Positions 3,314 to 59,679 of a DNA stretch of 64,000 nt are shown one piece after another. The DNA is from Vicinamibacterales bacterium (GTDB taxonomy: Bacteria > Acidobacteriota > Vicinamibacteria > Vicinamibacterales > JAMQPK01): the NCBI GenBank assembly GCA_963825295.1, contig CAWGSZ010000009.1, positions 1,718,329 to 1,782,328 on the forward strand. The letters run 5' to 3'. The stretch's first letter is position 1, and every line of letters begins with the position of its first letter. Under the pieces are notes generated by a model. It had not been told where the DNA came from and did not search any database. It worked only from the letters and a program-made list of their open reading frames with translations. Position numbers and translations under genes: made by a program.

Positions 3314-3915
3314 CGTCGGCGCGGCGTCGCAGGTCGGCGATCCAGGCGCCGACGAGTGACTGACGCCGCTCGGCCACGAGTCTCGGCCTGGCCGCCTCAC
3401 CGCTTTGCCGGACCTCTTCGTCGGTCGGCTGGGAGGCCGCGGAGAACCGTTCGTCGAGATAGGACGCCAGCCGCAGGTCATCGGCCGCGTAGATTCTGAG
3501 CACGGCCTCGTCTACGCCTCTGGCCGCGAGCACGCCCGAGAACTCGGCCGCCGATCCGAATCGCGCGCGCATGCGCGCAATCCGCGCATCGATGGCCGCG
3601 GCCGTCGGTTCCGGCGGCACGACGCGGCGAACTTCGTTCAACATCAACAGGCGATCGACGAGCAGCGCTCAAGCCTCCCGTCAGGCGATCGCTCGCAGCC
3701 GGCGCCTCAATCAGGCCCAGATCGAGTGCGGCTTCCAGATCCGATAGCGTGACGATCTGGCCCGGCATGATGGCGAGCACCTTCTCGATAATCTCGGCCT
3801 TGGCACTGACGATGAAAGGGCTGAGGGCTGAGGGCTGAGGGCTGAGGAGCCACACGAATACGCTGATCGTGGCCCGCCACGCGTGACGCGAACGGCTCTT
3901 TGGCTTCACATCCAT
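3297..3915 (-). CDS. Exported SurA N-terminal-like protein; frameshift near 3660
   Basis: Signal peptide, then AEIIEKVLA..GQIVTLSDL; C-terminus WIADLRRRADVTI. Lies downstream of the Omp85 gene. Confidence 0.6.
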
Positions 3916-3942
3916 GCCATCTAGCCCTTAGCCCTATGCCCT
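3817..3942. repeat. Inverted heptamer arrays AGGGCTG x4 (3817-3847) and (T/A)(A/T)GCCCT x3 (3922-3942)
   Basis: Read directly. The arms flank ATG 3915. Confidence 0.85.
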
Positions 3943-3954
3943 GACGTGTATCTA

Positions 3955-6885
3955 TCAAAAGGCCTGCCCCAGCGAGATGTGGAGCGCGGTCAATGGCTCT
4001 CGGTCTCCGCTCGGCAACAGCCGGCGATCGAGCTTGAATCCCAGGTCCACGCGAATCGGGCCGACCGGCGAGCGATACCGCAGACCGAAGCCGACCGATC
4101 CCCGAAGTTCCGCGAGATCCATGTCATCCACATTCGCAAATACGTTGCCGCCATCGAGAAACGCCACCGCACCCAGCCCGCCGCGAACAGGGAATGCGGG
4201 CTTCGGCATTCAGCACGATAAGCCCGTGGCCGCCTTTCGGAAAGCCGTCCTGGTCGATGGTCTCGGGACGTGCCGAGCCGGTCGAGCGCGAAGCCGCGGA
4301 CCGTGTTTTCGCCGCCCGCATAGAACCGCTCGCTCGCCGGAATGTCTTCGACCGTGATTTCCTGTCCCTCGCGGTTGACGGTTGCTCGCAAAACCCGTCG
4401 CCAGCCCGACGCGGGCGCCGAAAGCAAGAACGGTCGAGCGTGCGCTCGGCAGCCGCCGGTAGCTGAATGCCTGCAGAAACGTCTTGAAGAAACCGACCTG
4501 CGATCCAAGCGCGCGCGCCGCCAGTTCGGCGTCCGCGCCGGTGAGCGTGCCGGAATCGGGTTCGACGGGATCTATCCGCGTGTCGCGAATCACCGACCCT
4601 GCCACGCTCGACAGGCGCACCTGCGGGAACAACCGGTCGATGATCGGCTGCGCGGCGAAGTTCGACTTGATGTTGACGAGCTTCGTGTGATCGAGACCGT
4701 AGTGGCCGATCACCAGGACCGCGGGCGTCACCCGCCGCGTGAAGATCGCGTTGGCGCCACGGCGGTTGAAGTCGAAGCTCGATCGCACGCCCTGCTCGAC
4801 GGCCGCGGTAAACGTGAAGTCGGCCGCGGTATTGAAGATGCTTCGCTCGCCGAAAGTCAGCCGCGCCAGATATTCGTTGAACCCGTATCCCCCGTCGTCG
4901 ACCGGAAATGGGGCCTGGCTTTCCAGGTCGCTGAGGCCGGTCTTGCGAAAGCTAACGCTCGTGAACAGGCCGATCGATCGGTCCTTGCCGAACAGGTTGC
5001 GCCGGTTCACCTGGAAGAACCCGCGCGGCGCGACTTGAAATTCCTCAATGGCGTCGCCGCCATCCAGCGATCGCACGAGTCGACGGCCACCTTCGATGCC
5101 GCCGCCGTACGAGATGGTCGTCACGGGCGCCTCGTCGACGGTGATGACGACATCCCGGAGGTTGGTTTCGCCTGGAAGCTGAAGGTAGGAAATATCAACG
5201 CGCCGGAAGAGACCGAGCGTGGTGAGCCGCCTCCGCGTCTCGTCTTCCTGCTCCTGCGAGAGCGGCTGCCCGCTCTTCAGCTGCACTTCGCGGAGAATCG
5301 TCTCGCGGCTGGTGCGCTGATTCCCGACGATGAGCACGTGGTCGATCAGGATCTGCGGGCCTTCGTGGATGTTGAAGTTCAGCTCGACTTTCGATCCGTC
5401 GCCAATGCCCTTTGGCGCCGGCTGCACGGTGACTTCCGGATAACCGCGATTGAGGTACAAGACGCCAATGGCATCGGCATCCGACGCAATCTGGGGCTCG
5501 AAGTACGGCTGCCCCGGAGACGCCGTCACGACCTTGCGAAGCATCTCCGCGGCGATGGCGGTATTGCCCTGGAACAGGACCGAATCGACCATCGAGCGCA
5601 CGCCTTCGGCGATGACGAACCGCACGCGCACGTACTCGCTGCCGGCCTTCGGCTCGCGCCGTTCGAGCTGCGACGTCACTTTCACGCCCGCGAACCCGCG
5701 CTGGCGGTAGTAGCCCTGAATTCGTGACGCATCGGCGCCGGCAATCGAGTCGCTGAACGCCAGTCCGGTCTTCATCACGAGAAGCGGCGCCAGCTCTGCC
5801 GACGTGATCGACGTGTTGCCCGTCACTTCGGCCTGCTCGACGATGCACTGGGGTCCGCGAGTCACGGTGAACGTCACGCGCAGTACCCCTTCTGCTTCAG
5901 CGCGCTGGTAGTCGGCCCGCGGGTTGCAGAACCCACGCTCGCGGAAGTGGCGCTCGATGCCGAACTTCGAGTCCTCGAGCAGATCTTCGTCGACCGAACG
6001 CTCCCGGGCGATCGGCACGAGCAGGTTCCGTTCGCTCGTGCTCAACGGATCTCCCTGGAAGTCGATCTCGACGCGCGGTCCCGGCTCCACGCTCAGGGTC
6101 AGGTCGACGGCGGTATCGTCGGCGAAGCGCGCGATCTGCGTCACACGGGCCTCGTAGTAGCCCTCCGCGCGCAGCTCGCCGGCATACCTGATGAGGCGCT
6201 CATCGAGCTCCACGCCGTCGTAGCCATCGCCGAGCCGCAGATCGAGCGCGCCCAGCAGTTGCGCCTGCGATCCACGTGGTGAGCCCTGCACGTCGATCTC
6301 CGCAATACGCGCCCGCGCACCGGGGCGGATGGCAATGACCATGGTCGCGTTCGATGGATCGCGCGTGGGACCGGCACTGATGGTGATCTCGGCCTTCGGA
6401 TAGCCCCGCTGGCGATACACCGTCTGAAGCGTGGACGTCACCTGGTTCGCCCGCGCAAGGGAAAGCGACGAGCCATGGCGTTCCAGGACGACACGGCGCA
6501 GTTCGGCTTCCGGGATGCCGAGCTGCCCCGAAAAAGCAATCCTGCGGAAGCGTTGTGCCGGAATGAGGTTGTAGGTCAGCACGACGCCCGTGTCGCGAAG
6601 CGACGCATCAACCTGCACGTCCTGGTACAGTCCCAGGCCGAACAGGTGCGCCATGCTTTCGCGGACCTCGCCCATGGCAAGCGGCGACCCGGCGTCGGTT
6701 TCGATAATCTCGACGAGCGCCGGATCTCGCACCTCGACGCCGTTGGTCTGCAACCGGATTTCGACGATGGTCTTACCGATGTAATCGGTGACGGCCGCCT
6801 CGGACCTGCGGCCGATGGCGAGCAACACGAGCAGCAGTACGCAGCGTCCGGCGTCAGCCGAACGCCCGCGGCGGAACACCCTCAA
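3955..6885 (-). CDS. BamA/TamA-family Omp85 outer-membrane protein with multiple POTRA domains; frameshifts at about 4200-4390
   Basis: POTRA repeats, ERFYAGGENTVRGF, and terminal GFGLRYRSPVGPIRVDLG..ISLGQAF. Confidence 0.88.
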
Positions 6886-10955: not shown

Positions 10956-10956
10956 T

Positions 10957-10977
10957 CCTAATCCCTAATCCCTAATC
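10957..10977 (+). repeat. CCTAATC x3 heptamer array
   Basis: Contains the BCCP gene stop and fills the spacer to tamB. Confidence 0.9.
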
Positions 10978-13113: not shown

Positions 13114-13142
13114 CTAGTCCCCAGTCCCCAATCCCTAATCCC
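13114..13142 (+). repeat. (A/G)TCCC(C/T)A heptamer array
   Basis: ctagtccccagtccccaatccctaatccc, just after the carboxyltransferase stop. Confidence 0.9.
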
Positions 13143-13150: not shown

Positions 13151-14683
<1,533 letters not shown>

Positions 14684-21821: not shown

Positions 21822-21866
21822 ATCTTAATTCGACACCGAATTCCCGCTCCGGCTCCTCCAGGTCTC

Positions 21867-21892
21867 CTCAATCCCTAATCCCTCAATCCCTA
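21867..21892 (+). repeat. AATCCCT array overlapping a stop codon
   Basis: ctcaatccctaatccctcaatcccta. Confidence 0.8.
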
Positions 21893-26134: not shown

Positions 26135-26737
26135 ATGGACGAGACGTTTTTAACGACCGAAGAGGTGCTCGAGTACCTCCAGGTCAATTTGCGGACGGTG
26201 TACCGGCTGATCAAGGCCGGCAAGATTCCGGCTGTGCGGGTCGGACGCCAATGGCGCTTCCGCAAGCGCGACATCGACGCCTGGCTCGACAGCCAGCGGC
26301 CCCGTGGCGGGTCGCGCGCGGCGGCGGCTACGGCCGAGACGCCCGCACCCGCTCCGCGCCAGGGTGCCGACCGCCCGCGCATTCTCGTCGTGGACGACGA
26401 GTCCAGCATCCGCGACCTGCTGTCGAAAACGCTGGCGCTCGCGGAGTACGACGTCGATACCGCCTCTGACGGGCGATCGGCGCTCGAGCGGCTGCGGCTG
26501 TATCCCTACGACCTGTTGATTGCCGACCTGAAGATGCCGGGCATCGACGGGCTGAGCGTCATTCGCGAAGCGAAACGTCTCAAGACCAGCCTCCCGGTGA
26601 TTATCATCACGGGCTATTCCACCGAGACCGCCGCCATCGAAGCGGTGAACCTCGGCGTGTCCGGCTACCTGACGAAACCGTTCCGCGTTCCGCAGGTGCT
26701 GGCTGCGGCTGCGAAAGCCATTGGGGAACCCGGCTAA
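26135..26737 (+). CDS. Response regulator with an N-terminal excisionase-type HTH and a C-terminal receiver domain
   Basis: LTTEEV..YL..TVYRLIKAGKIPAVRVGRQWRF, then ILVVDDE..DLKMPGIDG. Confidence 0.9.
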   Translation: MDETFLTTEEVLEYLQVNLRTVYRLIKAGKIPAVRVGRQWRFRKRDIDAWLDSQRPRGGSRAAAATAETPAPAPRQGADRPRILVVDDESSIRDLLSKTLALAEYDVDTASDGRSALERLRLYPYDLLIADLKMPGIDGLSVIREAKRLKTSLPVIIITGYSTETAAIEAVNLGVSGYLTKPFRVPQVLAAAAKAIGEPG

Positions 26738-26765
26738 TCCCTAATCCCCAATCCCTAATCCCTAG
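26734..26765 (+). repeat. C(T/C)AATCC x4 heptamer array starting on the stop codon
   Basis: ctaatccctaatccccaatccctaatccctag. Confidence 0.92.
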
Positions 26766-26775: not shown

Positions 26776-28741
26776 GTGTTACAGCTTTCCAACATCAGCA
26801 AATCATTCGGCGAGCGCGTGCTGTTCGAGGACATCACCTGGCAGATCGACGAGGGTGAGCGGGTCGGGTTGTGCGGTCCGAACGGCGCGGGCAAAACCAC
26901 GTTATTGAAGATGATGGCGGGTCTCGACGAGCCCGACACGGGCGGCATCGTCAAGCCATCGGCGTTGACAGTGGGCTACCTGCCGCAGGACGGCTTGTCG
27001 CACACAGGCCGGACGATTCTCGACGAAGCGAGCTCGGCATTCGCGGGACTGCTCGAGGTGAAGCGCGAGATGCACGCCATCGAGGAGCGTCTCGGCGACG
27101 CGACGGTCGCCGCGGACGAGCACGACGCGATGCTCGATCGCTACAGCGCGCTCCAGGATCGATTTCGCATCGGCGAGGGCTACAACATCGACCTGAAGGT
27201 CGCCACGGTTCTACGCGGTCTCGGCTTCACCGACGACACGTTCGAGCACCCGACCGATTCGCTGTCGGGCGGGTGGCAGATGCGGCTCGCGCTCGCCAAG
27301 CTGCTTCTGGGCCGGCCGACGCTGCTCCTGCTCGACGAGCCGACCAACCATCTCGATCTCGAAGCGCGGAACTGGCTCGAGGAGTACCTCTCGGCGTATC
27401 CCCACGCCGTGATTCTCGTCTCGCACGATCGGTTCTTCCTCGACGCCGTGGTCACCCGCATCAGCGACTTGAACCTTCGCAAGCTGACCGACTACCCCGG
27501 CACCTACACGCACTACATCGCCGAACGCGACGCACGCATGGACGCGCTTCGCAAGGCCAAGCACGAGCAGGACGAAGAGATCGCGCGCGTGAAGATGTTC
27601 ATCGATCGCTTCCGCTACCAGGCGACCAAGGCCGCGCAGGTGCAGAGCCGCATCAAGATGCTCGAGAAAGTGGTGCCCATCGAGGCGCCGCCCGAGCGCA
27701 AGCGCATTCATTTCACGTTCCCGGTCTGCGCGAAAAGCGGGCGCTCGGTCGTCGAGCTGCACGACGTGCGCAAGGCGTACGGCGGGAACGTGATTTTTTC
27801 GAAGCTCAACCTGCTCATCGAGCGCGGCGACCGCATCGCGCTCGTCGGACCGAACGGCGCCGGCAAGAGCACGATGATGCGGATGCTCTCGGGCGTCGAG
27901 GAGCCCGACCAGGGCACGCGCCGCGACGGTCACCAGGTCGTCATGCAGTATTTCGCGCAGGACGAAGCGGTTCGGCTGGAGCCGAAATTGACCGTGTACG
28001 AAACCCTCGTGTCGGGTTCGCCGATGAACATGGTGCCGGCCATCCGCAACATTCTCGGGGGCTTCCTGTTCTCGGGCGACGACATCTACAAGAAGGCGGG
28101 CGTGCTGTCGGGCGGCGAGCGCACGCGGCTGGCCGTCGCACGCATGCTGCTGCGGCCGTCGAACACGCTGCTCCTGGACGAGCCGACCAACCATCTCGAT
28201 CTCGACTCGAAGGACATCCTCCTCGAAGCGCTGAACGACTACGGCGGCACGCTCGTGTTCGTCTCCCACGATCGCTACTTCGTCGAGAAGCTGGCAACCA
28301 AGATCATCGAGATTGGACACGGAGAGGCGATCGTGTTCCCTGGCACCTACCTGGAGGTACTTGTGGAGTAAAGAGCACAGGGAGGGTTCGTCGGGTTCGA
28401 AACGTTCAACATCCCCGGTAGGGCGCGACTTCAGTCGCGCTAAAGAGGCACCCAGCGGAGCCGCCGGCCACGACGCGCGCAAGCGTGCCGCGTCGGAGCA
28501 GAAGAAGCGCGATCAGACGGCGAAAAGGCGGCAGGGGGATATTGCCACTCTCGAGGCGCGCATCGCCGACTGCGAGCAGGCCATGAGAGACATCGAGGCC
28601 GCCATGTCGGCCCCTGGGTTCTACGACAACCGCGACCAGTCCCAGCCGGTCATCGATCGCCACCAGGCGCTCATGTGGAAGCTCGGCGACCTGATGCATC
28701 AGTGGGAAGAGCTGCAGAGATCGAGAAGATCTAGAATCTGA
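26776..28741 (+). CDS. ABC-F family ATPase; frameshift near 28360
   Basis: Two ABC domains (GPNGAGKT/S, LSGG, LLLDEPTNHLD) and no TM. C-terminal coiled coil in the second frame. Confidence 0.92.
28418..28440 (+). repeat. GTAG-type REP inside the ABC-F C-terminal linker
   Basis: GTAGGGCGCGACTTCAGTCGCGC. Confidence 0.8.
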
Positions 28742-28818
28742 AAGCTAGAATCTGGGGCTGTCAGATTTCGGACTACAGACACGCCAGATTCCAGATTCTC
28801 GTTTCTAGATTCTAGTTT
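28731..28818. repeat. Gene-less inverted heptamer hairpin (CTAGAAT ... ATTCTAG)
   Basis: Left arm ctagaatctgaaagctagaatctgg; right arm ccagattccagattctcgtttctagattctag. Confidence 0.8.
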
Positions 28819-30231: not shown

Positions 30232-31638
30232 ATGGGTCGCATTCTCATAGCTGATGATCACGATGCCCTCCGGCGCGGGCTCGCCCGGGCGCTGACGGCT
30301 GCCAATCACGAAGTCGAAGAAGCTCCCAACGGCAACCAGGCCATCGAGCGGCTTCACGACGGGCATTTCGACGTCGTACTGAGCGATCTGAAGATGGGCG
30401 GCAGCGACGGGCTCGACGTGCTCCGCACGACCAAGACGCTCCATCCCTCGACCGCCGTCATCCTGATGACCGCCTTCGGATCGGTGCACACGGCGGTGGA
30501 AGCGATGAAGAGCGGCGCCTTCGACTACGTGCAGAAGCCCTTCGAGATCGAAGAAATGGAAGTGAAGATCGAGAAGGCGCTCGAGATGCGGCGCATGCGC
30601 CACGAGCTCGACTACCTGCGGCATACCCAGAACGACATCTACGATTTCGACCGCATCGTCGGCCAGAGCGATCCCCTCAAGCGCGTGCTCGGCGTCGTGA
30701 AGAAGGTGGCCAAGAGCAACACGACCGTGCTGATTCGCGGCGAGACGGGAACCGGCAAGGAGCTCATCGCCGGCGCCATCCATCACAACTCGCTGCGTGC
30801 GTCGCGGAACTTCGTCAAGGTGAACTGCGCGGCACTTCCCGAGACGCTGCTCGAATCGGAGTTGTTCGGACACGAGAAGGGGGCATTCACGGGCGCCGAT
30901 CGCCAGCGCATCGGCCGCTTCGAGCAGGCCGACGGCGGCAGCCTCTTCCTCGACGAAGTCGGCGACATGAGCGCCGCGATTCAGGCGAAGATCCTGCGTG
31001 TCTTGCAGGAGCACGAGTTCGAACGCCTCGGCGGCACGCGCACGCAGAAGGTGGACGTGCGGCTCGTCGCGGCGACCAACCGCGATCTATCCGTGATGGT
31101 GGCGTCCGGAGCGTTCCGCGAAGACCTGTACTACCGGCTGAACGTCGTCTCGGTGGAGATGCCGCCGCTGCGCGAGCGCAAGGAAGACATCATCCCGCTC
31201 GCGATGTTCTTCGTGAAGAAGTTCGCCGGCGAGCTGAAGAAGAAGATCGACGGAATCGACCCGGAAGCGCAGAAGATGCTGCTGCGCTACAACTGGCCCG
31301 GCAACATCCGCGAGCTCGAGAACTCGGTGGAGCGGGCGATTCTGATGACCGAAGGGCAGTTCATCACGTCGGAGGATCTGCGCCTGGGCGAAGCGGCGAC
31401 CGCCGGTGTGACCAGCACGCGCGAGGCTTCGGCGCTCGTGAAGATTCCGCCGTCGGGCGTGCCGCTCGAGGAAATCGAGCGGAGCGCGCTGATGGAAGCC
31501 TTGAAGATGTCGAACTGGGTGCAGAAGGACGCCGCGGAGCTGCTCGGCATCAGCCCGCGCGTGATGAACTACAAGATCAAGACGCTCGGCATCGAGTTCC
31601 CGCGGGGACGGCGGCCGATGGTCGCCGCGGCGAGTTAG
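30232..31638 (+). CDS. sigma54-dependent response regulator (NtrC family)
   Basis: Receiver domain, [23 protein letters not shown]-terminal Fis HTH. Confidence 0.95.
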
Positions 31639-31686
31639 TCGTAAGGCGCAAGTCGAAAGTCGTCAGGCGAAAGTCAGTCACAAGTC
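31637..31686 (+). repeat. AG(T/G)CGNA heptamer array beginning in the stop codon
   Basis: agtcgta aggcgca agtcgaa agtcgtc aggcgaa agtc... Confidence 0.8.
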
Positions 31687-31726: not shown

Positions 31727-31787
31727 CGCACCCAACGCACCTTTCGCACCCCTCGCACCCAACGCACAACGCACCCAACGCACCTAA
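31727..31787 (+). repeat. 9-mer array CGCACCNNN, about 7 units
   Basis: cgcacccaa cgcaccttt cgcacccct cgcacccaa ... Confidence 0.88.
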
Positions 31788-32555
31788 CTATTGCCCTGCC
31801 TTGAGAATCTCCAGAAACACTCGTTCCGTCTCCTGAGACGGATCGGCGCCGAGCTCGTCGCGGAACAACTCGCGGCATTTGCCGAACACGCGCAATGCTT
31901 CGCCGCGATTGCCCATCCGTGCGTGTGTCTGCATCAGATGCCGGTATCCGGTTTCCTGGAACGGCTCGAGCTCGATAATCTCCGTCGCGTATTGAACGGC
32001 CAATCCCGGTTCCCCATTCGCGGCACTGATCTTCGAGAGAATATGCAGGCCGCGGACTAACAGAGACCGAAGCTTCCCGCGGCGAGCTTCAATCCACACG
32101 GCTTCGTCGCCAGCGAGGAACGGCCGCCGCGCAATGATGACAAGGCCAACCGCATGGCCCCACGCGCGCCGCAAGTCGCCGGTACGAAATGCGCCATCGG
32201 CTTCGTCCATGGCGTTCGCCGCGTACTCCAGATCGATCCAGATGTCGCGGGGAAGACGCAGCTGCACCGTCCCCGAGAGCACTTCAACGGCAGCGTTCGT
32301 CGTAAGACCAGCCCGCTTGAATACCGCGCGAAGCTTGCTGAGATTGGCGTTGAGGGACACTTCGAGCTCGCGAGGTGGTGTGTCAGGCCAGACGACTGCG
32401 ATCAATTCGTCCTTGCTGACAGGCCGTTGACGCTCCGAAATCAGGAACGCGAATGCCAGACGCCCCTGCCGCCCCGCAAGATCGCGCTCCTCGACGAGCA
32501 CGCTGCCATGCTCCAGCGATATCCGCCCGGTCAGGTAGATGCGCGCGGTCGCCAA
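31788..32555 (-). CDS. SARP-type regulator (winged HTH + BTAD)
   Basis: VSKDELIAVVWP..LSKLR, LEPFQETGYRHLM, ELGADPS. Confidence 0.85.
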   Translation of the reverse strand: MATARIYLTGRISLEHGSVLVEERDLAGRQGRLAFAFLISERQRPVSKDELIAVVWPDTPPRELEVSLNANLSKLRAVFKRAGLTTNAAVEVLSGTVQLRLPRDIWIDLEYAANAMDEADGAFRTGDLRRAWGHAVGLVIIARRPFLAGDEAVWIEARRGKLRSLLVRGLHILSKISAANGEPGLAVQYATEIIELEPFQETGYRHLMQTHARMGNRGEALRVFGKCRELFRDELGADPSQETERVFLEILKAGQ

Positions 32556-32790: not shown

Positions 32791-32950
32791 AGTCGCTGGT
32801 CGCAAGTCGACGGTCGGTCGTCGCAAGTCAGTCGCTGGTCGACAGTCGTAGATGGGCGATGGGCAATGGTCATGGGTCGATAGGCGCTAGTCTGTCGACG
32901 GCCATCGACCGACCATTGGCCATTGGACCCTTGACCATGGCCCATCGACC
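32791..32950. repeat. Composite: (A/G)GTCGNN array (32791-32850) plus an inverted ATGG/CCAT-core hairpin (32851-32950)
   Basis: gatgggcgatgggcaatggtcatgggtcga ... tcgaccgaccattggccattggacccttgaccatggcccatc. Confidence 0.8.
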
Positions 32951-33909: not shown

Positions 33910-35385
33910 GCGTTTCTGGCAGGCGCGGCCGAACTGAAGTTCGGCACTACCGAGGACGTCTTCCACGCGTCGAGGTCGGCCAGGGCGCGTTCCGAGATCG
34001 CAAGTTTCCGCTTCTGCTTGTCGCGAATGTGCGCGGCCGGCGGCTCCATGATACCGAAGGTGATGTTGGTCGGCTGATAGTCGTGCGGGTTCGCGTGAGA
34101 CACGTAGAAGGCGAGCGCGCCGATGGCCGTCGTGCGTGGGGGCACCCGCAGAACGTCACCACGCGTCAGCGCCGCCGCGTTCGAGCCGGCGAGGAGACCC
34201 GAAGCGGCCGATTCGACGTAGCCCTCAACGCCGGAAATCTGCCCGGCAAAAAACAGGAAGGGGTTCGTTCGCGTCTGCCACGTCTCGTGCAGGACGGTCG
34301 GCCCGTTGATGTAGGTGTTGCGGTGCACCATCCCGAACCGCACGAACTCGGCGTGCTCGAGACCGGGAATCATGCGCAGCACCCTCGCCTGCTCTCCCCA
34401 CTTCAGCTGCGTCTGAAAGCCGACCAGGCTGTAGTGGTCGCCGGCCAGATTGTCCTGGCGCAGCTGCACGGCGGCGTACGGCTGCCGCCCGGTGCGGGGG
34501 TCGGTGAGCCCGACGGGCTTCATCGGACCGAAGCGCAGCGTATCTTCGCCGCGATGCGCCATCACTTCGATGGGCAGGCAGCCTTCGAAGAATTTCTCCT
34601 TGTCGAAATCGTGCACGGTCGCCGATTCAGCCGTCGTGAGCGCTGCATAAAACGCGCGGTACTCCGTCCGCATTCATCGGGCAGTTCAGATAATCGCCCT
34701 GGCCGTCATCGGTGCCGCACATTTTTTGACTGTCGACTGGCGACTGTTGACTAGCGACTGTCGACTCTTCTGAGCTAATCCCTAATCCCCGATCCCCAAT
34801 CCCTGGATTGGCCCCTGGATTGCGCCGAACGCTCCGGTCCCAGCGTGAGGCACGAAATACCTTCTCCATGTCGATCGTCTCGGCAAGGACGATCGGGCTG
34901 ATCGCGTCGTAGAAATACAGATGCTCGCTGCCGATCAGGCTCACGATGGCCGCCGACAACGCCGGCGACGTCAGCGGACCTGTCGCGATGATGACCGGCG
35001 ATTCCAGCGTCGCGGCGGGAATCGACGTCATCTCCTCCCGCGAAAGGGTAATGAGCGGATGTTCGTGGACCGCCTGCGTCACCGACCGCGCGAAGAGATC
35101 GCGATCGACGGCCAGCGCGGCTCCCGCCGGCACGCGCGCGAGCTCGGCGGCGTGCATGACGAGCGAGTCGAGCCGGCGCATCTCCTCTTTCAGGAGCCCG
35201 ACGGCATTGTCCAGCTTGTCTCCCCGGAACGAGTTGCTGCAGACGAGCTCGGCGAGCCGGTCGGTTTTGTGGACGTCGGTGGGCCGGACGGGCCGCATCT
35301 CGTGAATGGTGACGGGAACGCCGCGCGAGGCCGCCTGCCACGCCGCCTCACAACCGGCCAGGCCGCCGCCAATTACATGAACCAT
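33906..35385 (-). CDS. trmFO: tRNA (uracil-54) methyltransferase TrmFO; frameshift near 34675
   Basis: [52 protein letters not shown]. Confidence 0.95.
33928..33950 (-). repeat. GTAG-type REP in the trmFO 3' end
   Basis: Minus strand GTAGTGCCGAACTTCAGTTCGGC. Confidence 0.8.
34727..34822 (+). repeat. Two stacked heptamer arrays (CGACTGT-type and AATCCC(T/C)-type), in frame inside trmFO
   Basis: Encodes [32 protein letters not shown] between SRWD and GDYLNCP. Confidence 0.88.
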
Positions 35386-35390: not shown

Positions 35391-35470
35391 GGCAGATGGC
35401 AGATGGCGGATGGCAAGCGGCACGTGGTAGTGACTGGGCCTAATCCCAAATCCCTAATCCCCAATCCCTA
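35391..35470 (+). repeat. ATGGCAG-type array (35391-35428) plus an AATCCCN array (35439-35470) filling the topA-trmFO spacer
   Basis: Read directly. The second array contains the topA TAG. Confidence 0.88.
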
Positions 35471-37916: not shown

Positions 37917-38810
37917 TTAGCACGGCCGCCGAAATCGTACGAATCGGCCGCCCTCCACGCGACCGATCGCACCCGCGAGCTCCAGCTCGAGCAGCCGCGG
38001 CAGCAGCTTCACACGATCGACGCCCGAGCGTTCTGCGATCTCGTCGAGATCGCAGGCGTCGCCCTCCTCCATCGAACGGAGAACCGGATCGTGAGACGCA
38101 AGATTAGGCGTGGGGGGTTCTTTTCCACGACTAATCCCCAATCCCAAATCCCCAATCCCTGGAGAGATCTCTTCCAAGATATCGTCCACACACTCGACGA
38201 GCTTTGCACCATCGCGCAGCAGGGCGTGCGCCCCGCAGTTCCGCCCGCCGAGCACATTGCCCGGAACTGCAAGCACGGCGCGCCCCTGCTCGAGCGCGAA
38301 GTCGGCGGTGATGAGCGAACCGCTGCCCTCTGCCGCCTCCACGACCACCACCGCCAGCGAGAGCCCGCTGATGATCCGATTCCGCTGCGGAAAGTTTGAT
38401 TTCAAAGGAGGTGTGCCCGGATCGAACTCGCTGACGAGCGCCCCGCAGGTGACGATGCGCGCGGCGAGCGCGCGATGTTCGGGCGGGTAGATGACGTCGA
38501 CGCCGCAACCGAACACCGCAACGGTCGCGCCCCCACCGTCGAGCGCGCCACGGTGCGCGGCGGAATCGACGCCGCGCGCCATGCCGCTGACGACGATCAC
38601 CCCGCGGCGTGCGAGATCGGCACCAAGCCTGTACGCCACTTCGAGGGCGTACGGCGACGCGCGGCGCGAGCCGACGATGGCCACCGACGGCACGCGGAGG
38701 ACGTCGACACCCCCTCTGACCCAGAGCGACGATGGCGGATCGTGAATGGCGGCCAGGGCGGTGGGATAACGGAGATCGCCTGTAGATATTGCACAAATCT
38801 TGGCGCTCAC
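37917..38810 (-). CDS. dprA: DNA-processing protein DprA
   Basis: [39 protein letters not shown]. Confidence 0.95.
38131..38160 (+). repeat. AATCCCN array in frame in the dprA linker
   Basis: Encodes [10 protein letters not shown]. Confidence 0.88.
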
Positions 38811-40466: not shown

Positions 40467-40494
40467 CACTTTTTACTTTCTACTTTCTACTTTC
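40467..40494 (+). repeat. TACTTTC heptamer array
   Basis: cactttttactttctactttctactttc. Confidence 0.88.
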
Positions 40495-40505: not shown

Positions 40506-40763
40506 ATGGCTCATAAAAAAGGACAGGGCAGCTCCCGCAACGGCCGCGACAGCAATTCGCAGCGGCTGGGCGTCAAGCGCCACGACGGCAACATCGTGAC
40601 CGGCGGATCGATTCTCGTGCGCCAGCGCGGACGCCGTTTCCAGCCCGGCCTCAACGTCGGGCTCGGCAAAGACGACACGCTCTTCGCGAAGGTCGCCGGT
40701 CGCGTGCGTTTCGAAGACCACGGCGCCCGTGGCCGCCGCATCAGCGTGCTGCCCCTTGAGTGA
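40506..40763 (+). CDS. rpmA: 50S ribosomal protein L27
   Basis: [21 protein letters not shown]. Confidence 0.97.
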
Positions 40764-40768: not shown

Positions 40769-40890
40769 GAAAGGTGAAAGTAAAAAGGTGAAAGTAAAAA
40801 GTTGAAGGTAGAAAGTCTTCACTTCTTACTTTTGACTTTTCACTTTTCACTTTTGACTTTTCACTTTTTACTTTTCACTTTCACTTTCAC
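40769..40890. repeat. Gene-less inverted heptamer hairpin (GAAAGT(A/G) arm 40769-40816; (C/T)ACTTTT arm 40820-40890)
   Basis: AT-rich arrays read directly between rpmA and obgE. Confidence 0.9.
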
Positions 40891-41982: not shown

Positions 41983-42627
41983 ATGCCGGCCACGTCACCG
42001 CGAATAGGTATTCTCGGCGGGACATTCGATCCGATCCATCTGGGCCACCTCGAGGCCGCCTCGGCCGCCAGGCGCGAGCTGTCGCTCGATCGGATTCTGA
42101 TCCTGCCCGCGCGCACGCCGCCCCATCGCAGCATCGAGCCGCGCGCGTCCGTGTTTCACCGGTTCGCGATGGCGGCACTCGCCGCGGCCGAACGCGATAT
42201 GATCGTGTCGGATCTGGAGCTCCAGCGCGAGGGACCGTCCTTTACGGCGCTCACGCTCGAGGCACTCCACCGCGATGGATATGCGCCGTCACATTTGTAT
42301 TTCATTACGGGCAGCGATGCGTTCGCCGAAGTGAATACCTGGTACGACTATCCACGCATCCTCGGTCTCGCGAACTTCGTGGTCGTGTCGCGTCCGGGCG
42401 CTCCACGCCCGGCCGACCTAATCCCTAATCCCCAATCCCCAGTCCCTGATCCGATACGGCCGACCGTCTTATCGGTGGAGGCCGATACGCCGAACGTGTC
42501 ATCCACCGAGATTCGACGCCGTGTCGGCGCCGGCGAGCCGATTGAAAGTCTCGTGCCGTCGAGCGTGGCCGGCCACATCCGCCGGAATCGCTTGTACGTG
42601 CCGGCACCAGTCGCGGCGGTGTTGTGA
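41983..42627 (+). CDS. nadD: Nicotinate-nucleotide adenylyltransferase
   Basis: GGTFDPIHLGH, FITGSDAF, VSSTEIR. Confidence 0.95.
   Translation: MPATSPRIGILGGTFDPIHLGHLEAASAARRELSLDRILILPARTPPHRSIEPRASVFHRFAMAALAAAERDMIVSDLELQREGPSFTALTLEALHRDGYAPSHLYFITGSDAFAEVNTWYDYPRILGLANFVVVSRPGAPRPADLIPNPQSPVPDPIRPTVLSVEADTPNVSSTEIRRRVGAGEPIESLVPSSVAGHIRRNRLYVPAPVAAVL
42417..42452 (+). repeat. AATCCCN array in frame in nadD
   Basis: Encodes LIPNPQSPVPDP. Confidence 0.88.
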
Positions 42628-43031
42628 CCCCAGCTCGCAAACGTTCATCGAAAAAATTCCCCGCCCAGGTACAGCGGGCCATCGAGGCCGCACAGGATCG
42701 CAAGGCCGTCGACGTCGTGGTACTCGACCTCCGTCCGGCCAACGGGTTCACGGACTACTTCGTGATCATGACCGGCGCCAACACCCGGCAGATTCAGGCC
42801 ATCTCGGACGCCATCCAGGATGCGCTCGGCTCGACCGGCGTGAAGCCGGCGCATGTGGAGGGCGGCGATCGCGCCGGGTGGATCCTGCTCGACTACTTCG
42901 ATTTCATCGTGCATATCTTCAGCCCCGACTCGCGCGCGTTTTACGCATTGGAGCGACTGTGGGGATCTGCCGAACGCATCGACGTGGCTGAACCGAAACC
43001 TCAACGACAGGGACTTGGGATTAGGGATTAG
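42624..43031 (+). CDS. rsfS: Ribosome silencing factor
   Basis: DRKAVDVVVLD, DYFVIMTG, WILLDYFDFIVHIF..R.FYALERLW. Confidence 0.95.
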   Translation: MTPARKRSSKKFPAQVQRAIEAAQDRKAVDVVVLDLRPANGFTDYFVIMTGANTRQIQAISDAIQDALGSTGVKPAHVEGGDRAGWILLDYFDFIVHIFSPDSRAFYALERLWGSAERIDVAEPKPQRQGLGIRD

Positions 43032-43032
43032 G
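43010..43032 (+). repeat. GGGATTA array (left arm of cassette 1); supplies the rsfS C-terminus and stop
   Basis: gggacttgggattagggattagg. Confidence 0.9.
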
Positions 43033-43539: not shown

Positions 43540-44385
43540 CACGCCTGACTGTTCTAATCCCTAATCCCCACTCCCTAATCACTGACGCCACCAGGGTCAC
43601 GGGAAACAGTCTGGTAGCGGCGTTGCTGGCGCCAGCCTGCGCCGTGTGTGACACGGTCCTCGACGAACCCTTGTCCGGCTGCGTGTGCCGAACCTGCTGG
43701 GCAGCTATCAGGCCGATCACTCCGCCGGTGTGCGACGCGTGCGGCGACCCGCTCGCGCGCCGGGCCCAGTCACCACTCACCAGTCTCCGAACACCTGATG
43801 ACACCGAATCCCTAATCCCTAGCCCCCATCCCCAGTCCCTCTGCGCGTTGTGTGGGAGGCATCGCTCCACCATCACTCGCGCACGGGCCGTCGGCGAGTA
43901 CCGAGGGCGCGCTCAGAGACATCATCCACGCGCTGAAGTACGGTGGTCGCCGGTCGCTGGCACGTCCCCTTGCCGCCCTGATGCGCGATCGAGGGGCCGA
44001 ACTTCTCACCGGGGCCGATTGTGTGGTGCCGGTCCCGCTTCACTGGAGGCGGGAATACTCACGCGGCTTCAATCAGGCCCGGGAGCTGTGCCGGCATCTT
44101 GGCTTGCCGGTGGTCGAGGCCTTGCTTCGCGCACGGCACACACGAGCGCAGGTCGAGCTGGTCGCCGATCGCCGCCGGGCAAACGTCGCAGGCGCGTTCC
44201 GCCTGCGTCGCGGTCTGCTGTCCAGGCCGCGCATCTCGGAAACGAAGGTGTTGCTCATCGACGATGTGAGCACGACCGGCGCGACGTTGGAATCCTGTGC
44301 CCGGGTGCTGAAGGAGTCGGGGGCCGCCGAGGTCTTAGCGCTCACGACCGCACGCGTCGTCACGCGCGGCCGCGCCGCCGGGTAG
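43536..44385 (+). CDS. comF: ComF family protein; frameshift near 43900
   Basis: Double zinc ribbon (CAVC, CRTC, CDAC, CALC), VPVPLH..RGFNQ, LLIDDVSTTGATL. Confidence 0.9.
43554..43580 (+). repeat. TAATCCC array (right arm of cassette 1)
   Basis: ctaatccctaatccccactccctaatc, inverted relative to 43010-43032. Confidence 0.9.
43807..43840 (+). repeat. Degenerate AATCCCT array in frame in the comF zinc ribbon
   Basis: Encodes SLIPSPHPQSL between CDAC and CALC. Confidence 0.85.
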
Positions 44386-45056: not shown

Positions 45057-45112
45057 GAATCTGAATCTAAAATCTAAAATCTAGAAACTAAAATCTGAAA
45101 ACTGGAATCTAG
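45057..45112 (+). repeat. AATCT(A/G)(A/G) heptamer array, about 8 units, containing the lysA stop
   Basis: gaatctgaatctaaaatctaaaatctagaaactaaaatctgaaaactggaatctag. Confidence 0.88.
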
Positions 45113-53116: not shown

Positions 53117-53135
53117 GCGGGGAGTATCGCTCATT

Positions 53136-53693: not shown

Positions 53694-53694
53694 G

Positions 53695-56255: not shown

Positions 56256-56256
56256 T

Positions 56257-56289
56257 TCGTCCATCGTCGATCGTCCATCGTCGATCGTC
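56257..56289 (+). repeat. TCGTC(C/G)A array, about 5 units (downstream arm of cassette 2)
   Basis: tcgtccatcgtcgatcgtccatcgtcgatcgtc. Confidence 0.92.
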
Positions 56290-56302
56290 TGGCGGCATTG
56301 TT

Positions 56303-56683
56303 TTAGTGACGATCTTTCCAGTCGGTGCGCTGTAGATAGTTGATCCAGTTCGTTAACATTCGCCCGATGTGATCGTAGCTGTCGACGTAGCGCGAGTATT
56401 CCGTCCTGGAGATGAGTGATTTCTGGTAGGCGTCTTCGAGATGCCCGATCGTTTCTTGCACAGAGCCTCTGGCTCGACCGAGGTAGACGGCCAGATGTCT
56501 ATCGGTCAGTTGTCCGTAACCTTCGGCCACAAGCGGCGCAACGCGGCTTGTTGAGCGGGACAACTGATCTTTCAGAGTGAAATTTCTGCCAAACACAGGG
56601 CGCTCCAACAGCTCGGAAACTTCACCAGCCATCTTCAGCGCCTTCTTGTAGACCTTGATTTCAGAAAGGCTTCTCGCTCGCAT
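56303..56683 (-). CDS. Four-helix-bundle protein (23S rRNA IVP / Avd-like)
   Basis: LSEIKVYKKA, FTLKDQLSRS...VAEGYG, YLGRARGS.QE, ML..WINYL. Confidence 0.88.
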   Translation of the reverse strand: MRARSLSEIKVYKKALKMAGEVSELLERPVFGRNFTLKDQLSRSTSRVAPLVAEGYGQLTDRHLAVYLGRARGSVQETIGHLEDAYQKSLISRTEYSRYVDSYDHIGRMLTNWINYLQRTDWKDRH

Positions 56684-56696
56684 GCGAGACAGCAAG

Positions 56697-56711
56697 GCAC
56701 AATCCGCGCCA
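56697..56711 (-). promoter_or_regulatory. sigma54 -24/-12 motif
   Basis: Minus strand TGGCGCGGATTGTGC (GG-N10-GC), 13 nt before ATG 56683. Confidence 0.6.
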
Positions 56712-56724
56712 CCACCTCACACCC

Positions 56725-56768
56725 GGACGATGGACGATCGACGATCGACGATCGACGATCGACGATGG
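56725..56768 (+). repeat. T(G/C)GACGA x6 array (upstream arm of cassette 2)
   Basis: Units are exact reverse complements of those at 56257-56289. Confidence 0.92.
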
Positions 56769-57704
56769 TCACTTCATGGCGACGTACGGATTGCGCCCGA
56801 CGATCTGGAAGCGGCGCGTGGCGTCTTTGACGATGCCAATCGCCATCAGCTCGAGCGGCGCGGTGCCGGTCGCCTCGAACGATCTGGTCTGGTTGAAATT
56901 CAACGGCACGGCATCGTGCGCCTTGATCGGCGCACTTTCCGATCCGACCTTCACCGTGCCCTCCCCCGAGAGCACGTAATAGAAGCCGCCAATTTCGGCG
57001 TCGGTCGCCGGGCCAATCGACGCGCCGGGAGGGATCAGCAGGTGATCGACATATCCCCACGGCCCCTGGAACACCGGCACGTCGAGCGCACGGCGAGCCT
57101 GCACCGCCCCGTTGCCGCCGTGCAGGGCGTTGAACGGACGCAGCAGCGCGCGATCGAGCCGCAGGGTCATGAAATTCGTATTCGGTTCGACTGGCGCGCC
57201 CGCGCGCGAATCGCCGAGATCGAACGCGTCATACCAGCCCTTGATGCCCGCGACGTTGATGTTCATCCATTCAACGGTCTCGTTCGTGTGGTTGTAAATC
57301 GCGTGTGAGTGCCCCATCCGTACGGGCGCACCCGCGGGCCCCTTCAACACCGACGTGTGGCCGTCGATCGTGAACTGTGCCTCGCCGTTGAGGATGATGA
57401 ACATCTCCTCGCAGTTGTTGTGGAAATGCGCGCCAATGCCGGCCTTGGGCGGGATGTTGCCCCGGTGCAGAAACCACAGGTTGGTATCGGTGTGCTCGTT
57501 CTCGAACATCGACCCGATGAACATCGGGCCGGCTCCCGCGTGCACGGAAGGCGCCTTGCGGTTCTTCGCGGGATCGTAGTGCGAGATCCGCTGCGCGAGC
57601 GGTTGCGTGTGCGGCGGCGCGGCGGGAGGCGCGCCTCGTTGAGCGAGGGCGACACCACAAAAGAGAGAGAGGACAATCGCGCTTGCAACCGAGAGCGTCT
57701 TCAT
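56769..57704 (-). CDS. Exported bicupin protein
   Basis: Signal peptide; GAHFHNNCEEMFIILNG..HSHAIYN; second degenerate cupin domain. Confidence 0.85.
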   Translation of the reverse strand: MKTLSVASAIVLSLFCGVALAQRGAPPAAPPHTQPLAQRISHYDPAKNRKAPSVHAGAGPMFIGSMFENEHTDTNLWFLHRGNIPPKAGIGAHFHNNCEEMFIILNGEAQFTIDGHTSVLKGPAGAPVRMGHSHAIYNHTNETVEWMNINVAGIKGWYDAFDLGDSRAGAPVEPNTNFMTLRLDRALLRPFNALHGGNGAVQARRALDVPVFQGPWGYVDHLLIPPGASIGPATDAEIGGFYYVLSGEGTVKVGSESAPIKAHDAVPLNFNQTRSFEATGTAPLELMAIGIVKDATRRFQIVGRNPYVAMK

Positions 57705-57721
57705 CGCGAGCTCCTTCGACG

Positions 57722-57907
57722 GCAGGGCTGAAGCCCTGCGCTACCGCTATGACTATCCGACACGGACAGGGCTAAAGCCCTGTGCCACCGAGGTAACAGT
57801 GCCGAAGCCCTGTGCCACCGACAAACAGGGCTAAAGCCTGTACCACAGGGGCCGCATGCGACCGATGCCGCACTTGTAGTTGCGGTGGCACAGGCCTTCA
57901 GGCCTGT
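57722..57907. repeat. Cluster of five REP-like palindromes (BIME-like)
   Basis: Four copies of (G/A)CAGGGCT(G/A)AAGCCCTG(C/T)GC(T/C)AC, some degenerate, and one inverted GTGGCACAGGCCTTCAGGCCTGT. Confidence 0.88.
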
Positions 57908-57911
57908 CCGA

Positions 57912-59679
57912 CTACTTCACCAACCCGAAGGCAATGATGTTCGACCCCGACGAAATCGCCACGTGCTGCTGCCCGTCGAACTCGTAGGTCATCGGCGACG
58001 CGCGCCAGACGCTGTTCGTGCCGAAGTGCCACAATGGCTTTCCCGACGCCGCATCAGCGGCCACGAATCGATCCTGATCGTCGCAGAAGAACAAGAGGCC
58101 GCTCGCCGTCACGAGCGTCCCGCCACGCGCCGCGCCCGGACCCGGTTGCGGCAGCTCCCACGCGACCTTCCCGGTCTTGACGTCGATGGCGCGAAGAATC
58201 TTCTGGTTCGGCGCATCCTGCACTGGACGCGTTGAACCACCCCAGTAGGACTTCCCCGCCACCCATTCGCTGACGGCCTTGACGAAGACGTTGCAGTTCT
58301 CGAGCGTCTGAACGTAATAGAGCCCGGTCTGCGGGCTGTACGACGTCGAGTACCAATTCGCGGCGCCATGAGCCGATGGACAGATGCGCGTGCCTTCGGG
58401 TGTCGGCACCTGGCCAGGCACGAGGACCGGACGTCCTTCGGCATTGATCTCGCTCGCCCACGTCAGGTTTTTCACAAATGGCTTTGCCAGCAGGAATTTT
58501 CCATCCACCCGATCGAGGACATAGAAGAAACCATTCCGGCTCGCCTGCACCATGAGCTTGCGCGGCCGCCCCTCCCACGTCGTATCGACGAGCACTGTGG
58601 GCTGCTGCGCATCCCAGTCCCAGACGTTGTGTGGAGTGAACTGGAAGTGCCATTTCAGCCGGCCCGTGGCGGCTTCCAGCGCAACGACAGAGCTCGCGTA
58701 GAGATTGTCGCCTAGCCGATCGTCGCCGTTGTAGTCGGGACTCGGATTGCCAGTCGTCCAGTACACGAGCTGAAGTTCAGGGTCGTAGACGCCGGTCATC
58801 CAGGTGACCCCACCGGGATGCTCGATGCCACTGCCCTGCCATGTCTCCGATCCCGGCTCGCCCGGCTTCGGCACCGTCCAGAACCGCCACGCCTCGCTGC
58901 CCGTCGCCTGACTGTAGGCGGCAAGAAATCCACGCACGCCCTGCTCTCCCCCTGCCGTACCGGCAATCACCAGGTCACCGACAATCAGCGGGGCCGCAGT
59001 CGCGTTGTAGTTCAGCCGCCAGTCGGCCATCTCGGTATCCCAGAGGAGATCGCCGCAGAATCGATCGAGCGCGATCAGGTGTGCGTGGTCGGTCACCATG
59101 AACAGGCGATCGCCGGCCACGGCCACTCCGCGGTTGATGCCGCCGGCGGCGTTCCCGACCAGCCCTTTGGTGCGGGGACGTTGAAATCGCCAGATCTCGC
59201 GGCCGTTGCCCGCATCGAGCGCATAACATTCGTTCGCGCTCGTCACATACATGATGCCGCCCACGACCACCGGCGTGGTTTGCAGCCGGACGCGACGTCG
59301 GAATCGTGTAGATCCACTTCGGCGCCAGGCTGGTGATGTTCGACGTGTTCAGCTGGGTCAGCGAGGTGTACCGATTCCCGCTCGGGCTGCCGTCGTAGCT
59401 GGGCCACTCGACGGTGGACGTCACGACTCGATATCGCGCGCCAGATTTTCTCAGCAGCAGCACTTTGCCTTCTGCGGTGCGCAACTGGACGTCATCCGCG
59501 GCATCGTGGTTCAGCGCCGTACCGGTCATCGTCCGGCCGTCGGTCAGCTCGTAGGTGGCCAGCCGCCCGCGTGGAGCGGGCGCCGGCCCCTGCTGTCCCA
59601 GGACGAGCGAACCCTGAACCAGGAACCAGAACCCCAGAACCACAGAACCCGGAACCTTGAACCGCTTCATCCCGACCAC
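57912..59679 (-). CDS. PQQ-dependent dehydrogenase; frameshift near 59290
   Basis: WPSYDG..GNRY, GTAGGEQGVRGFL, FQFTPHNVWDWD, SRNGFFYVLDR. Confidence 0.88.
59609..59663 (+). repeat. GAACC-core 7/8-mer array in frame, forming the signal peptide
   Basis: Encodes RFKVPGSVVLGFWFLVQGS. Confidence 0.82.

Follow-up and report, generated by a model that had tools for sequence, protein, structure and literature searches.

The stretch analysed here, hereafter the window, comprises 64,000 nucleotides (nt) of contig C9 (positions 1718329-1782328, labelled G000:C9) from a soil bacterium of the Vicinamibacterales (Acidobacteriota), whose assembly holds 6.14 Mb in 15 contigs at 64% GC and is 92% complete. 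Its assignment to this order comes from a conserved carboxyltransferase, whose best relative has 93% amino acid identity. Short tandem arrays with a period of 7 nt are scattered across it, and at two sites such arrays, built of one unit and inverted relative to each other, enclose a gene for a small four-helix-bundle (4HB) protein of the PF05635 (23S_rRNA_IVP)/TIGR02436 family, also called the 'S23p' or 23S rRNA intervening sequence (IVS) family. Both genes lie between protein-coding genes, not within a 23S rRNA helix. At the first site, cassette A, positions 43009-43031 pair with 43554-43576 (23 nt, 91% complementary); at the second, cassette B, the arms are complementary over 36 nt at 89%, in several registers 7 nt apart, and a predicted RNA fold of 56240-56790 on the reverse strand pairs them around the open reading frame (ORF), with z = -5.2. 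The inverted pairs recovered in the window by repeat search, several of them in multiple registers 7 nt apart, are 28729/28815, 32854/32950, 40769/40887, 40468/40802, 43005/43587 and 56257/56768. The fourth of these reflects the complementarity of 40468-40494 to 40776-40802, which brackets rpmA (40506-40763), and for the array at 3817 this search gave no pair, there being only a weak, degenerate inverted copy near 3920-3950 (score 27).

Tandem Repeats Finder (TRF) reported 85 rows for the window, 28 of them with period 7, and higher-order periods of 14 and 21 nt are present among the rows. The unit AATCCCY occurs at 11 sites (10957, 13118, 21870, 26734, 34775, 35442, 38133, 42417, 43009 on the reverse strand, 43554 and 43807), alongside AGGGCTG (3817), TTTGCCA/GGCAGAT (15409 and 35391), a CTAGAAT-type unit (28784), AGTCGNN (31637), ACTTTYY (40468 and 40818), TCGWCGA (56257 and 56726) and a GAACC core (59616). 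At a TRF score of at least 40 and at least 3 copies, the whole genome contains 623 period-7 arrays, as against 2 in a third-order Markov control sequence; the corresponding counts are 185 and 0 for period 8 and 229 and 6 for period 9, and periods 14, 17, 18 and 21 are likewise raised over the control. Because perfectly periodic runs show no genome-wide excess at periods 5, 10 and 11, the excess is specific to periods 7-9; period 6 has a smaller excess, a large part of which falls within coding sequence. Arrays recur at orthologous sites in independently assembled relatives, and the period-7 observation is confirmed: the arrays are real and exceed chance by far.

Sorted by canonical unit, the 623 period-7 arrays form 83 groups, of which AATCCCT (88 arrays), AGATGGC (50) and AAAGTAG (35) are the largest, and the mean GC content of these units is 43%, against 64% for the genome. 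Mismatches pile up at one or two of the seven positions in all 16 of the 16 largest families (chi-square p 3e-5 to 1e-49), the unit consisting of a 5-nt core and a variable tail; for the AATCCC[T] family, 107 of 206 mismatches are at position 7. The periods 8 and 9 include families with a common core, AACC N1-2 ACG, which combine into 17-nt higher-order repeats (53 period-17 arrays). Perfect-run lengths decay about geometrically across the genome, for which reason a genome-wide peak in copy number was rejected: arrays at large spread broadly over 3.5-5.5 copies, and a mode at 4.0-4.5 copies is seen in cassette arms only (31/122 and 14/36). Two families recall heptamers described elsewhere, as AACTGAT, of our AACTGAN family, is a rotation of TAACTGA, and AATCCCC reads as a rotation of CCCCAAT, a form of CCCCA(A/G)T, which we take to be the STRR1 (short tandemly repeated repetitive) heptamer of heterocystous cyanobacteria. 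STRR1 is given as GGGGA(C/T)T in the available part of one source (PMC4692102).

An earlier note, made from the letters of the window, had described several families of period-7 arrays whose units vary at fixed positions, and had proposed a genome-wide period spectrum as a check. All the unit families it named were found again, AATCCCY at the 11 sites listed, and both the positional variation (16 of 16 largest families) and the excess (623 versus 2) bear it out. Its idea of one system with a 7-nt register was right in that the families behave as one system, and a link of this system to 4HB genes, on which its checks relied, is largely borne out, but arrays of periods 8-10 have the same anatomy and are linked to a different gene family, PDDEXK_3. 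Similarly, the contrast it drew with slippage microsatellites holds for the fixed-position variation, but ordinary slippage is also evident, in the 14- and 21-nt periods and in orthologous arrays that range from 3.4 to 10.3 copies.

The bracketing of 4HB genes by inverted arrays extends well beyond the window. The genome has 11 PF05635 matches, 2 of them in the window; seven of the 11 are flanked on both sides by inverted arrays built from one unit, and an eighth has a weak partner, with units that differ from gene to gene and periods of 7, 8 or 9. As a background, the 3670 called genes of at most 1200 nt include 15 with an inverted same-unit bracket and 15 with a direct one. PF05635 matches are present in 89 of 151 Acidobacteriota genomes (including the unpublished G085, G062 and G181, which contribute to such tallies only), and among 30 loci from 30 of these genomes, with GC contents of 29-70%, 24 have arrays on both sides. 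When the upstream flank was aligned to the reverse complement of the downstream flank, the score exceeded all 30 shuffles at 27 of the 30 loci, as against 3 of 30 for the direct alignment. In named genomes, the window 4HB protein also matched 80 loci, which belong to Bacteroidota, Planctomycetota, Verrucomicrobiota, Clostridia, Patescibacteria, Gemmatimonadota, Proteobacteria and others; leaving out three with too short a flank, arrays are found on both sides at 51 of 77 loci, on one side at 18 and on neither at 8, and complementarity exceeds all shuffles at 65 of 77 in the inverted and at 14 of 77 in the direct alignment. Period 7 accounts for 113 of the 136 arrays that flank 4HB genes in this survey (L115, without a Pfam match, was left out of the 4HB alignment).

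The cassettes also have a polarity: on the sense strand, the 5' arm has more G than C at 53 of 60 loci and the 3' arm more C than G at 52 of 60. Right arms carry a sense-strand stop codon in their units in 30 of 59 cases, compared with 22% expected from shuffled units. On cyanobacterial plasmids, all six of six genes annotated as 'four helix bundle' or 'S23 ribosomal protein' are bracketed (Calothrix, three Nostoc, Anabaena sp. 90 and Geminocystis). The Anabaena sp. 90 gene, on plasmid pANA02 (L349), has GGTGACA/CTGTCAC arms and is located between cas6 and cas4, which fits an earlier remark on 23S_rRNA_IVP genes within cas loci in the portion of PMC3936711 at hand.

Three array-poor genomes, with 0-1 period-7 arrays in the 40 kb sampled, have complementary flanks at 15 of 17 4HB loci (5 of the 22 matches, L368-L371 and L373, were omitted as fragments or below the cut-off), and the flanking arrays are usually the sole arrays within a 3.3-kb 4HB locus. 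Since 4HB genes are bracketed even in genomes almost without dispersed arrays, the arrays belong to the cassette and not to a pre-existing habitat.

Another gene family is enclosed in the same way, with arms of its own. PDDEXK_3 (PF13366; TIGR04256, GxxExxY) has matches in 56 of the 151 Acidobacteriota genomes (including G085), and at 30 loci (L237-L266) its flanking arrays have about 3 copies and a period of 8 (12 arrays), 9 (20), 10 (8) or 6 (1), with period 7 in none of 41. Their units have a common core, CAC(A/G)GAG, across genomes of 30-70% GC, and inverted complementarity beats all shuffles at 26 of the 30 loci, so that PDDEXK_3 with CAC(A/G)GAG arms looks like a second type of cassette with sequence-conserved ends. 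In the present genome, three of seven PDDEXK_3 genes are bracketed, all by period-8 arrays, as is one of four Uma2 genes. One PDDEXK_3 copy (C7:317827-318120), probably a pseudogene since two TGA codons interrupt it in frame, keeps its inverted period-8 arms. The enclosed genes match PF05635, PF13366 or PF05685 only, and none is a Y1 or DDE transposase. The period thus follows the enclosed gene family, which argues against small genes simply dropping into pre-existing hairpins.

Inversion is also the rule for closely spaced arrays that enclose no gene. Among 1484 non-redundant arrays of period 6-9, partners of the same unit within 100 nt form 139 inverted-only and 10 direct-only pairs, and the inverted pairs have a median loop of 23 nt; a second mode of gaps between paired arrays, at 400-750 nt, encloses a small gene. 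When the alignment was made more sensitive, an inverted partner turned up within 800 nt for 322 of 756 period-7 arrays and a direct one for 45, as against 8 in a control with random places.

Comparison within the genus indicates how gene-free pairs might originate. Cassette A, next to rsfS, is found in most of 19 relatives' loci with GGGATT-type arms, a 4HB protein of 72-86% amino acid (aa) identity and arm lengths of 3.4-10.3 copies. The arms are retained around an ORF that is reduced to roughly its first 20 codons in G024 and G021, almost wholly lost in G015 and missing an internal part in G009, so that deletion turns cassettes into ORF-less array pairs. The hairpin between rpmA and obg is conserved in position but differs between species in unit family, AAAGTNA here, AGAATCT-type in G015, G017 and G006 and others elsewhere, and both of its arms change unit together between species. 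rpmA is well conserved across those species, and G015 has 92-95% DNA identity over the adjacent genes. The rplU-rpmA-obg spacers of G021 are empty, at 8 and 5 nt, and G001 is without the hairpin. The in-gene array of the nadD-like ORF has a counterpart at the matching place in genus relatives, at 3.6-5.1 copies. Beyond the genus, the spot orthologous to the array at 13118, which adjoins a carboxyltransferase gene, holds different units and periods, or nothing.

The association between arrays and 4HB genes is likewise seen at the level of whole genomes. We sampled 11-40 kb in each of 32 Acidobacteriota genomes, in regions distant from the listed 4HB matches; the genomes were chosen by 4HB count and the presence of long contigs, and related ones are not independent. 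A check proposed in the earlier note came out positive, as the density of period-7 arrays is correlated with the number of PF05635 matches in these small samples of related genomes (Spearman 0.72, or 0.70 over 22 family means). No period-7 array was found in 12 of 13 samples from genomes free of PF05635, which are similar in GC and size, and 9 of 11 genomes with at least five matches have arrays, up to 47.5 per 100 kb. Dispersed arrays also resemble the cassettes of their own genome: in four genomes, 40-64% are within one mismatch of a unit flanking that genome's 4HB genes, compared with 0-36% for another genome's units.

The position of the arrays relative to genes is far from random. Gene calls were made with a crude codon-bias caller, by which about 83% of the genome is coding and start codons are unreliable, and part of the arrays flagged as within ORFs are artefacts of this caller. 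By these calls, 371 of 623 period-7 arrays are wholly intergenic. Divergent gaps, which make up 836 of all 3731 gaps, hold 61 of the 650 arrays outside genes, a depletion, and convergent gaps are enriched, with 184 of the 650. Where the gap is co-directional, arrays lie a median of 15 nt from the upstream stop codon; 407 are closer to the stop and 279 to the next start. Many arrays overlap the stop codon or start directly at it. AATCCCT is antisense to transcription in 46 cases and sense in 17, which puts its G-rich strand in the mRNA; AAAGTAG, on the other hand, is sense in 19 and antisense in 3. The orientation of AATCCCY also tracks local GC skew, with the C-rich unit on the C-rich strand in 64 cases versus 28, and flips along contig C9. 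An explanation of this orientation by replication strand was set aside, because the skew (64 versus 28) is confounded with gene direction (46 versus 17). No common class of genes was seen downstream of the arrays.

Table 1. Arrays, cassettes and associated genes of the window, with the bracketed PDDEXK_3 loci of the host genome (positions within the window unless a contig is given)
Feature	Position	Strand	Basis
AGGGCTG x4.4, perfect array	3817..3847	+	TRF
CCTAATC x3, fills spacer between two co-directional genes	10957..10977	+	TRF
TCCCCAA/AATCCCT x3.6, 8 nt downstream of carboxyltransferase stop (gene 13151-14683, -)	13118..13142	+	TRF
TTTGCCA x3.4, solo, 5 nt from stop codon	15409..15432	+	TRF
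AATCCCT-type array overlapping stop codon, solo	21866..21892	+	TRF
CTAATCC x4.4, solo, overlaps stop of gene 26135-26737	26734..26764	+	TRF
Inverted CTAGAAT-type pair, 28-nt loop, divergent gap	28729..28815	+	TRF, repeat search
AGTCGAA x5.6, begins at stop codon of sigma-54 activator gene	31637..31675	+	TRF
Period-9 array CGCACCCAA x7.1, abuts stop of convergent gene	31727..31788	+	TRF
GTCGNNN array upstream of 32851 hairpin	32799-32841	+	TRF
Inverted pair GATGGGC/CCATTGG, 33-nt loop, convergent gap	32851..32950	+	TRF, repeat search
GACTGTC x5.6, then CTAATCC x4.3	34728..34804	+	TRF
GGCAGAT x3.6 and AATCCCA x3.9 sharing one 82-nt spacer	35391..35468	+	TRF
AATCCCC x3.9 (STRR1 rotation)	38133..38159	+	TRF
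ACTTTCT x3.9, rplU-rpmA spacer	40468..40494	+	TRF
Hairpin of inverted arrays, (AAAGKNA)n then (TNMCTTT)n, rpmA-obg spacer	40769..40887	+	49-nt arms, 76% complementary
CCTAATC x5.1, in frame within nadD-like ORF (41983-42627), encodes ..IPNPQSPVPDP..	42417..42452	+	TRF
Cassette A 5' arm, AGGGATT x3.4, G-rich on gene's sense strand, overlaps rsfS 3' end (42624-43031)	43009..43032	+	TRF
4HB gene A, 138 aa	43123..43539	+	PF05635 E 3.7e-20; TIGR02436 E 2.5e-20
Cassette A 3' arm, CTAATCC x3.9, C-rich	43554..43580	+	TRF
Degenerate AATCCCT array downstream of cassette A	43807..43840	+	TRF
AATCTAA x6.9, overlaps stop of decarboxylase gene (45109-46353, -)	45064..45111	+	TRF
Cassette B arm, TCGTCCA/TCGTCGA x4.7, 1 nt past stop of gene 54915-56255	56257..56289	+	TRF
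4HB gene B, 130 aa	56303..56695	-	PF05635 E 8e-17; TIGR02436
Cassette B other arm, GACGATC x5.9	56726..56766	+	TRF
GAACC core repeated with 1-3-nt spacers, apparent period 6-8	59616..59656	+	TRF
Host PDDEXK_3 locus	C11:125689-126232		
Host PDDEXK_3 locus	C14:291582-292209		
Host PDDEXK_3 locus	C7:317574-318288		

Some further features of the window deserve mention (Table 1). A GC-rich hairpin followed by a T-run, resembling a terminator, is found at 31690-31725 between the AGTCGAA array and the period-9 array, and both arrays would accordingly lie in 3' untranslated regions. About five copies of a short palindromic motif of the CAGGGCTGAAGCCCTG type occupy the intergenic stretch 57705-57911; they are similar to repetitive extragenic palindromic (REP) sequences and distinct in kind from the tandem arrays. 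Two adjacent short ORFs on the reverse strand, 62955-63284 and 63479-63874, match PF25183 (outer-membrane beta-barrel) at profile positions 653-733 and 421-503, respectively, which suggests a split or broken receptor gene.

We consider it probable that the period-7 arrays derive from a widespread class of small cassettes, each with a 4HB gene placed between inverted arrays of one short unit, mostly a heptamer: they would be the arms at the cassette ends, derivatives that have lost the ORF, and solo remnants. Base pairing between the two arms would give a long duplex in which register shifts are tolerated. By analogy with the stem of the 23S IVS in Coxiella, pairing might occur in the transcript, where RNase III could cut it (a gene for RNase III is present in the genome), and excision of the stem from host transcripts would allow the element to sit inside operons. 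Slippage may lengthen and shorten the arms. Arrays would have proliferated, or persisted after the decay of cassettes, in about a third of the intergenic spacers, being tolerated presumably only where a stop codon adjoins and no divergent promoter is near. The picture of the arms as a register-tolerant duplex for excision is taken from the Coxiella element, which combines an S23p ORF, a heptamer stem and RNase III cleavage.

Several observations weigh against this interpretation. At gaps above 100 nt, direct pairs of arrays are about as common as inverted ones, 57% of the period-7 arrays of the genome are solo, as are most of those in the window, and there are only 11 4HB genes for about 750 period-7 arrays. 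The large AATCT-type, ACTGA-type and GAACC families flank no 4HB gene in the assembly, and ordinary genes (L14, S8, L35 and methyltransferases) are also bracketed by arrays of one unit. The density correlation rests on related genomes and on samples of 11-40 kb, and two genomes with many 4HB genes, G093 (11) and G145 (6), have no dispersed period-7 array in 40 kb. We infer the descent of solo arrays from cassettes from few examples of decay. The 4HB protein is not known to have a mobility mechanism, a target duplication or a catalytic domain; neither a target-site duplication nor a recent copy was seen for the cassettes, and since the 11 paralogues are only 15-22% identical, and hence old, no recent mobility is seen.

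The search for specificity between protein and unit also gave no support. The idea of one paralogue per unit family found no support, as the 11 paralogues include 3 close unit pairs where random draws give a mean of 2.4. A protein-to-unit code fared no better (Spearman rho 0.06 over 1431 pairs), with units common to near-orthologues only; taken together, these results provide no evidence of a recognition code. Selection on a stem in the sense RNA likewise left no signal: 92 stems contain 139 mismatches of the G.U type and 167 of the A.C type, and given this lack of a G.U excess complementarity may be kept at the DNA level.

Other explanations must be set against the cassette interpretation. 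It would be tempting to regard the arrays as ordinary simple sequence repeats (SSRs) made by slippage, with an intrinsic preference for 7 nt as proposed for large GC-rich genomes and with no relation to any gene, so that small selfish genes merely insert into, or survive in, repeat hairpins. The excess of heptameric SSRs and the slippage idea are indeed published (Mrazek 2007, as summarised in the available part of PMC4692102). Slippage also agrees with the range of copy numbers at orthologous arrays (3.4-10.3), the higher-order periods of 14 and 21 nt, the geometric-like decay of perfect runs and the presence of three unrelated families (4HB, PDDEXK_3 and Uma2) within inverted arrays. However, slippage alone predicts neither variation confined to one or two positions of the unit nor a preference for inverted partners, and it does not lead one to expect period 7 in 113 of 136 arrays around 4HB genes and in 0 of 41 around PDDEXK_3 genes. 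Nor does it sit easily with brackets at 15 of 17 4HB loci of array-poor genomes, where flanking arrays are usually alone in the 3.3-kb locus, or with samples lacking any period-7 array in 12 of 13 genomes that are free of 4HB genes yet similar in GC and size; we therefore find it unlikely as the whole explanation. Less plausible still is the proposal that the arrays are cis-acting elements of the host, independent of cassettes, with the GGG families as putative formers of G-quadruplexes or i-motifs. The 5-nt core is conserved, stop codons lie at a median of 15 nt from the arrays and are more frequent within units than in shuffled ones (right arms 30/59 versus 22%), and the placement of AATCCCY follows the GGGNATC pattern of Xanthomonas and Nostoc, with the G-rich strand in mRNA in 46 cases versus 17 (PMC4692102, the part available); the section of PMC4679880 on which we draw proposes that TAACTGA, represented here by the AACTGAN family, serves Beggiatoaceae as a translational signal. 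Still, most of the 83 canonical heptamers have no G-runs and only the GGG families (AATCCCY and AGGGCTG) could form a G-quadruplex, at one orthologous site closely related species have different unit families and some have no array at all, other genera differ in both unit and period, and no common class of downstream genes is seen. Such a role would also leave the 4HB bracket and the genome-level correlation unexplained.

The earlier note had put forward templated synthesis with a 7-nt register as a possibility; such synthesis, templated or reiterative, by an enzyme of the reverse transcriptase, telomerase-like or primase-like kind appears very improbable. What speaks for it is that units with a core and a variable part, together with the variable spacers of the GAACC arrays, could reflect stuttering synthesis, and that 4HB proteins are homologous to Avd, the partner of a reverse transcriptase in diversity-generating retroelements, according to the consulted portion of PMC10053308. 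Against this, the 92%-complete genome has no RVT_1 match, which leaves templated synthesis without support; moreover, 83 unit families occur within one genome, the higher-order repeats of 14 and 21 nt agree with a duplication of DNA already in place, and a candidate template was not found.

Beyond the cassette interpretation, we speculate, as a possible but doubtful extension, that 4HB proteins are trans-acting partners of the arrays throughout bacteria, each binding its own arms on the G-rich heptamer strand and causing arrays to form, be maintained or spread, and that GxxExxY/PDDEXK_3 nucleases do likewise for arrays of 8-10 nt with CACRGAG units.

How do the cassettes compare with known systems? 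REP sequences and REP doublets (REPINs) with their RAYT transposase, and MITEs (miniature inverted-repeat transposable elements) with their parent transposons, are dispersed intergenic repeats in which inverted copies flank a gene and ORF-less derivatives result from internal deletion. The 4HB gene resembles these in that the repeat whose inverted copies enclose it also occurs scattered through intergenic 3' regions of its own genome, and in having ORF-less derivatives. In contrast, the enclosed protein is a helical bundle of 120-140 aa with no known catalytic domain and is not a transposase, and the arms are tandem arrays, with a unit that varies by cassette, rather than single palindromes or unique terminal inverted repeats. 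Unlike a diversity-generating retroelement, the Avd-like 4HB gene is found in a genome without an RVT_1 reverse transcriptase match. The closest likeness is to the IVS of 23S rRNA in Coxiella and Leptospira, where a PF05635 ORF lies in a loop whose complementary ends form a long stem; as far as the accessible part of PMC4990558 goes, in that of Coxiella burnetii the loop carries the S23p ORF and the terminal stem, of 28 bp, has tandem GACAGAT heptamers, two or three by strain, the first of which is where RNase III cuts in vitro. Here, however, and at more than 100 other loci, the element lies between protein-coding genes, the arms are whole arrays of 3-40 units, and the unit families occur at hundreds of gene-free sites; excision would follow from analogy. 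The heptameric SSRs described in other bacteria (STRR, GGGNATC and TAACTGA) are also intergenic tandem heptamers with one variable position, depleted in divergent gaps and close to stop or start codons; they favour about 4 units, a preference seen here in cassette arms only; a link to a gene family is unreported in the parts of PMC4692102 and PMC4679880 that we used, and the arrays here are tied to 4HB genes, form inverted pairs and comprise many unit families in one acidobacterial genome. The cassettes thus appear to be IVS-type elements that unite the IVS with the heptameric SSRs.

The heptamer SSR excess, the slippage hypothesis, the GGGNATC/STRR and TAACTGA repeats and the IVS with S23p have all been published already. 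Our literature search, which lay mostly outside subscription journals, found no paper on the bracket, on the rule that ties period to gene family or on the genome-level association; only the heptamers of the Coxiella IVS had been noted.

Heptamer repeats (STRR, GGGNATC, TAACTGA and the SSR excess) have been known for decades without an origin or a function, and S23p proteins are likewise without a known role. The tie between gene and arrays merges both puzzles into one testable question, namely what effect the protein has on its arms, and it also provides a simple rule for the annotation of cassettes and their ORF-less remnants. Were 4HB proteins indeed the trans-acting partners of their arrays, the two would form a repeat-plus-protein system analogous to REP/RAYT, which would explain the STRR repeats of cyanobacteria, the GGGAATC repeats of Xanthomonas and the heptamer SSR excess.

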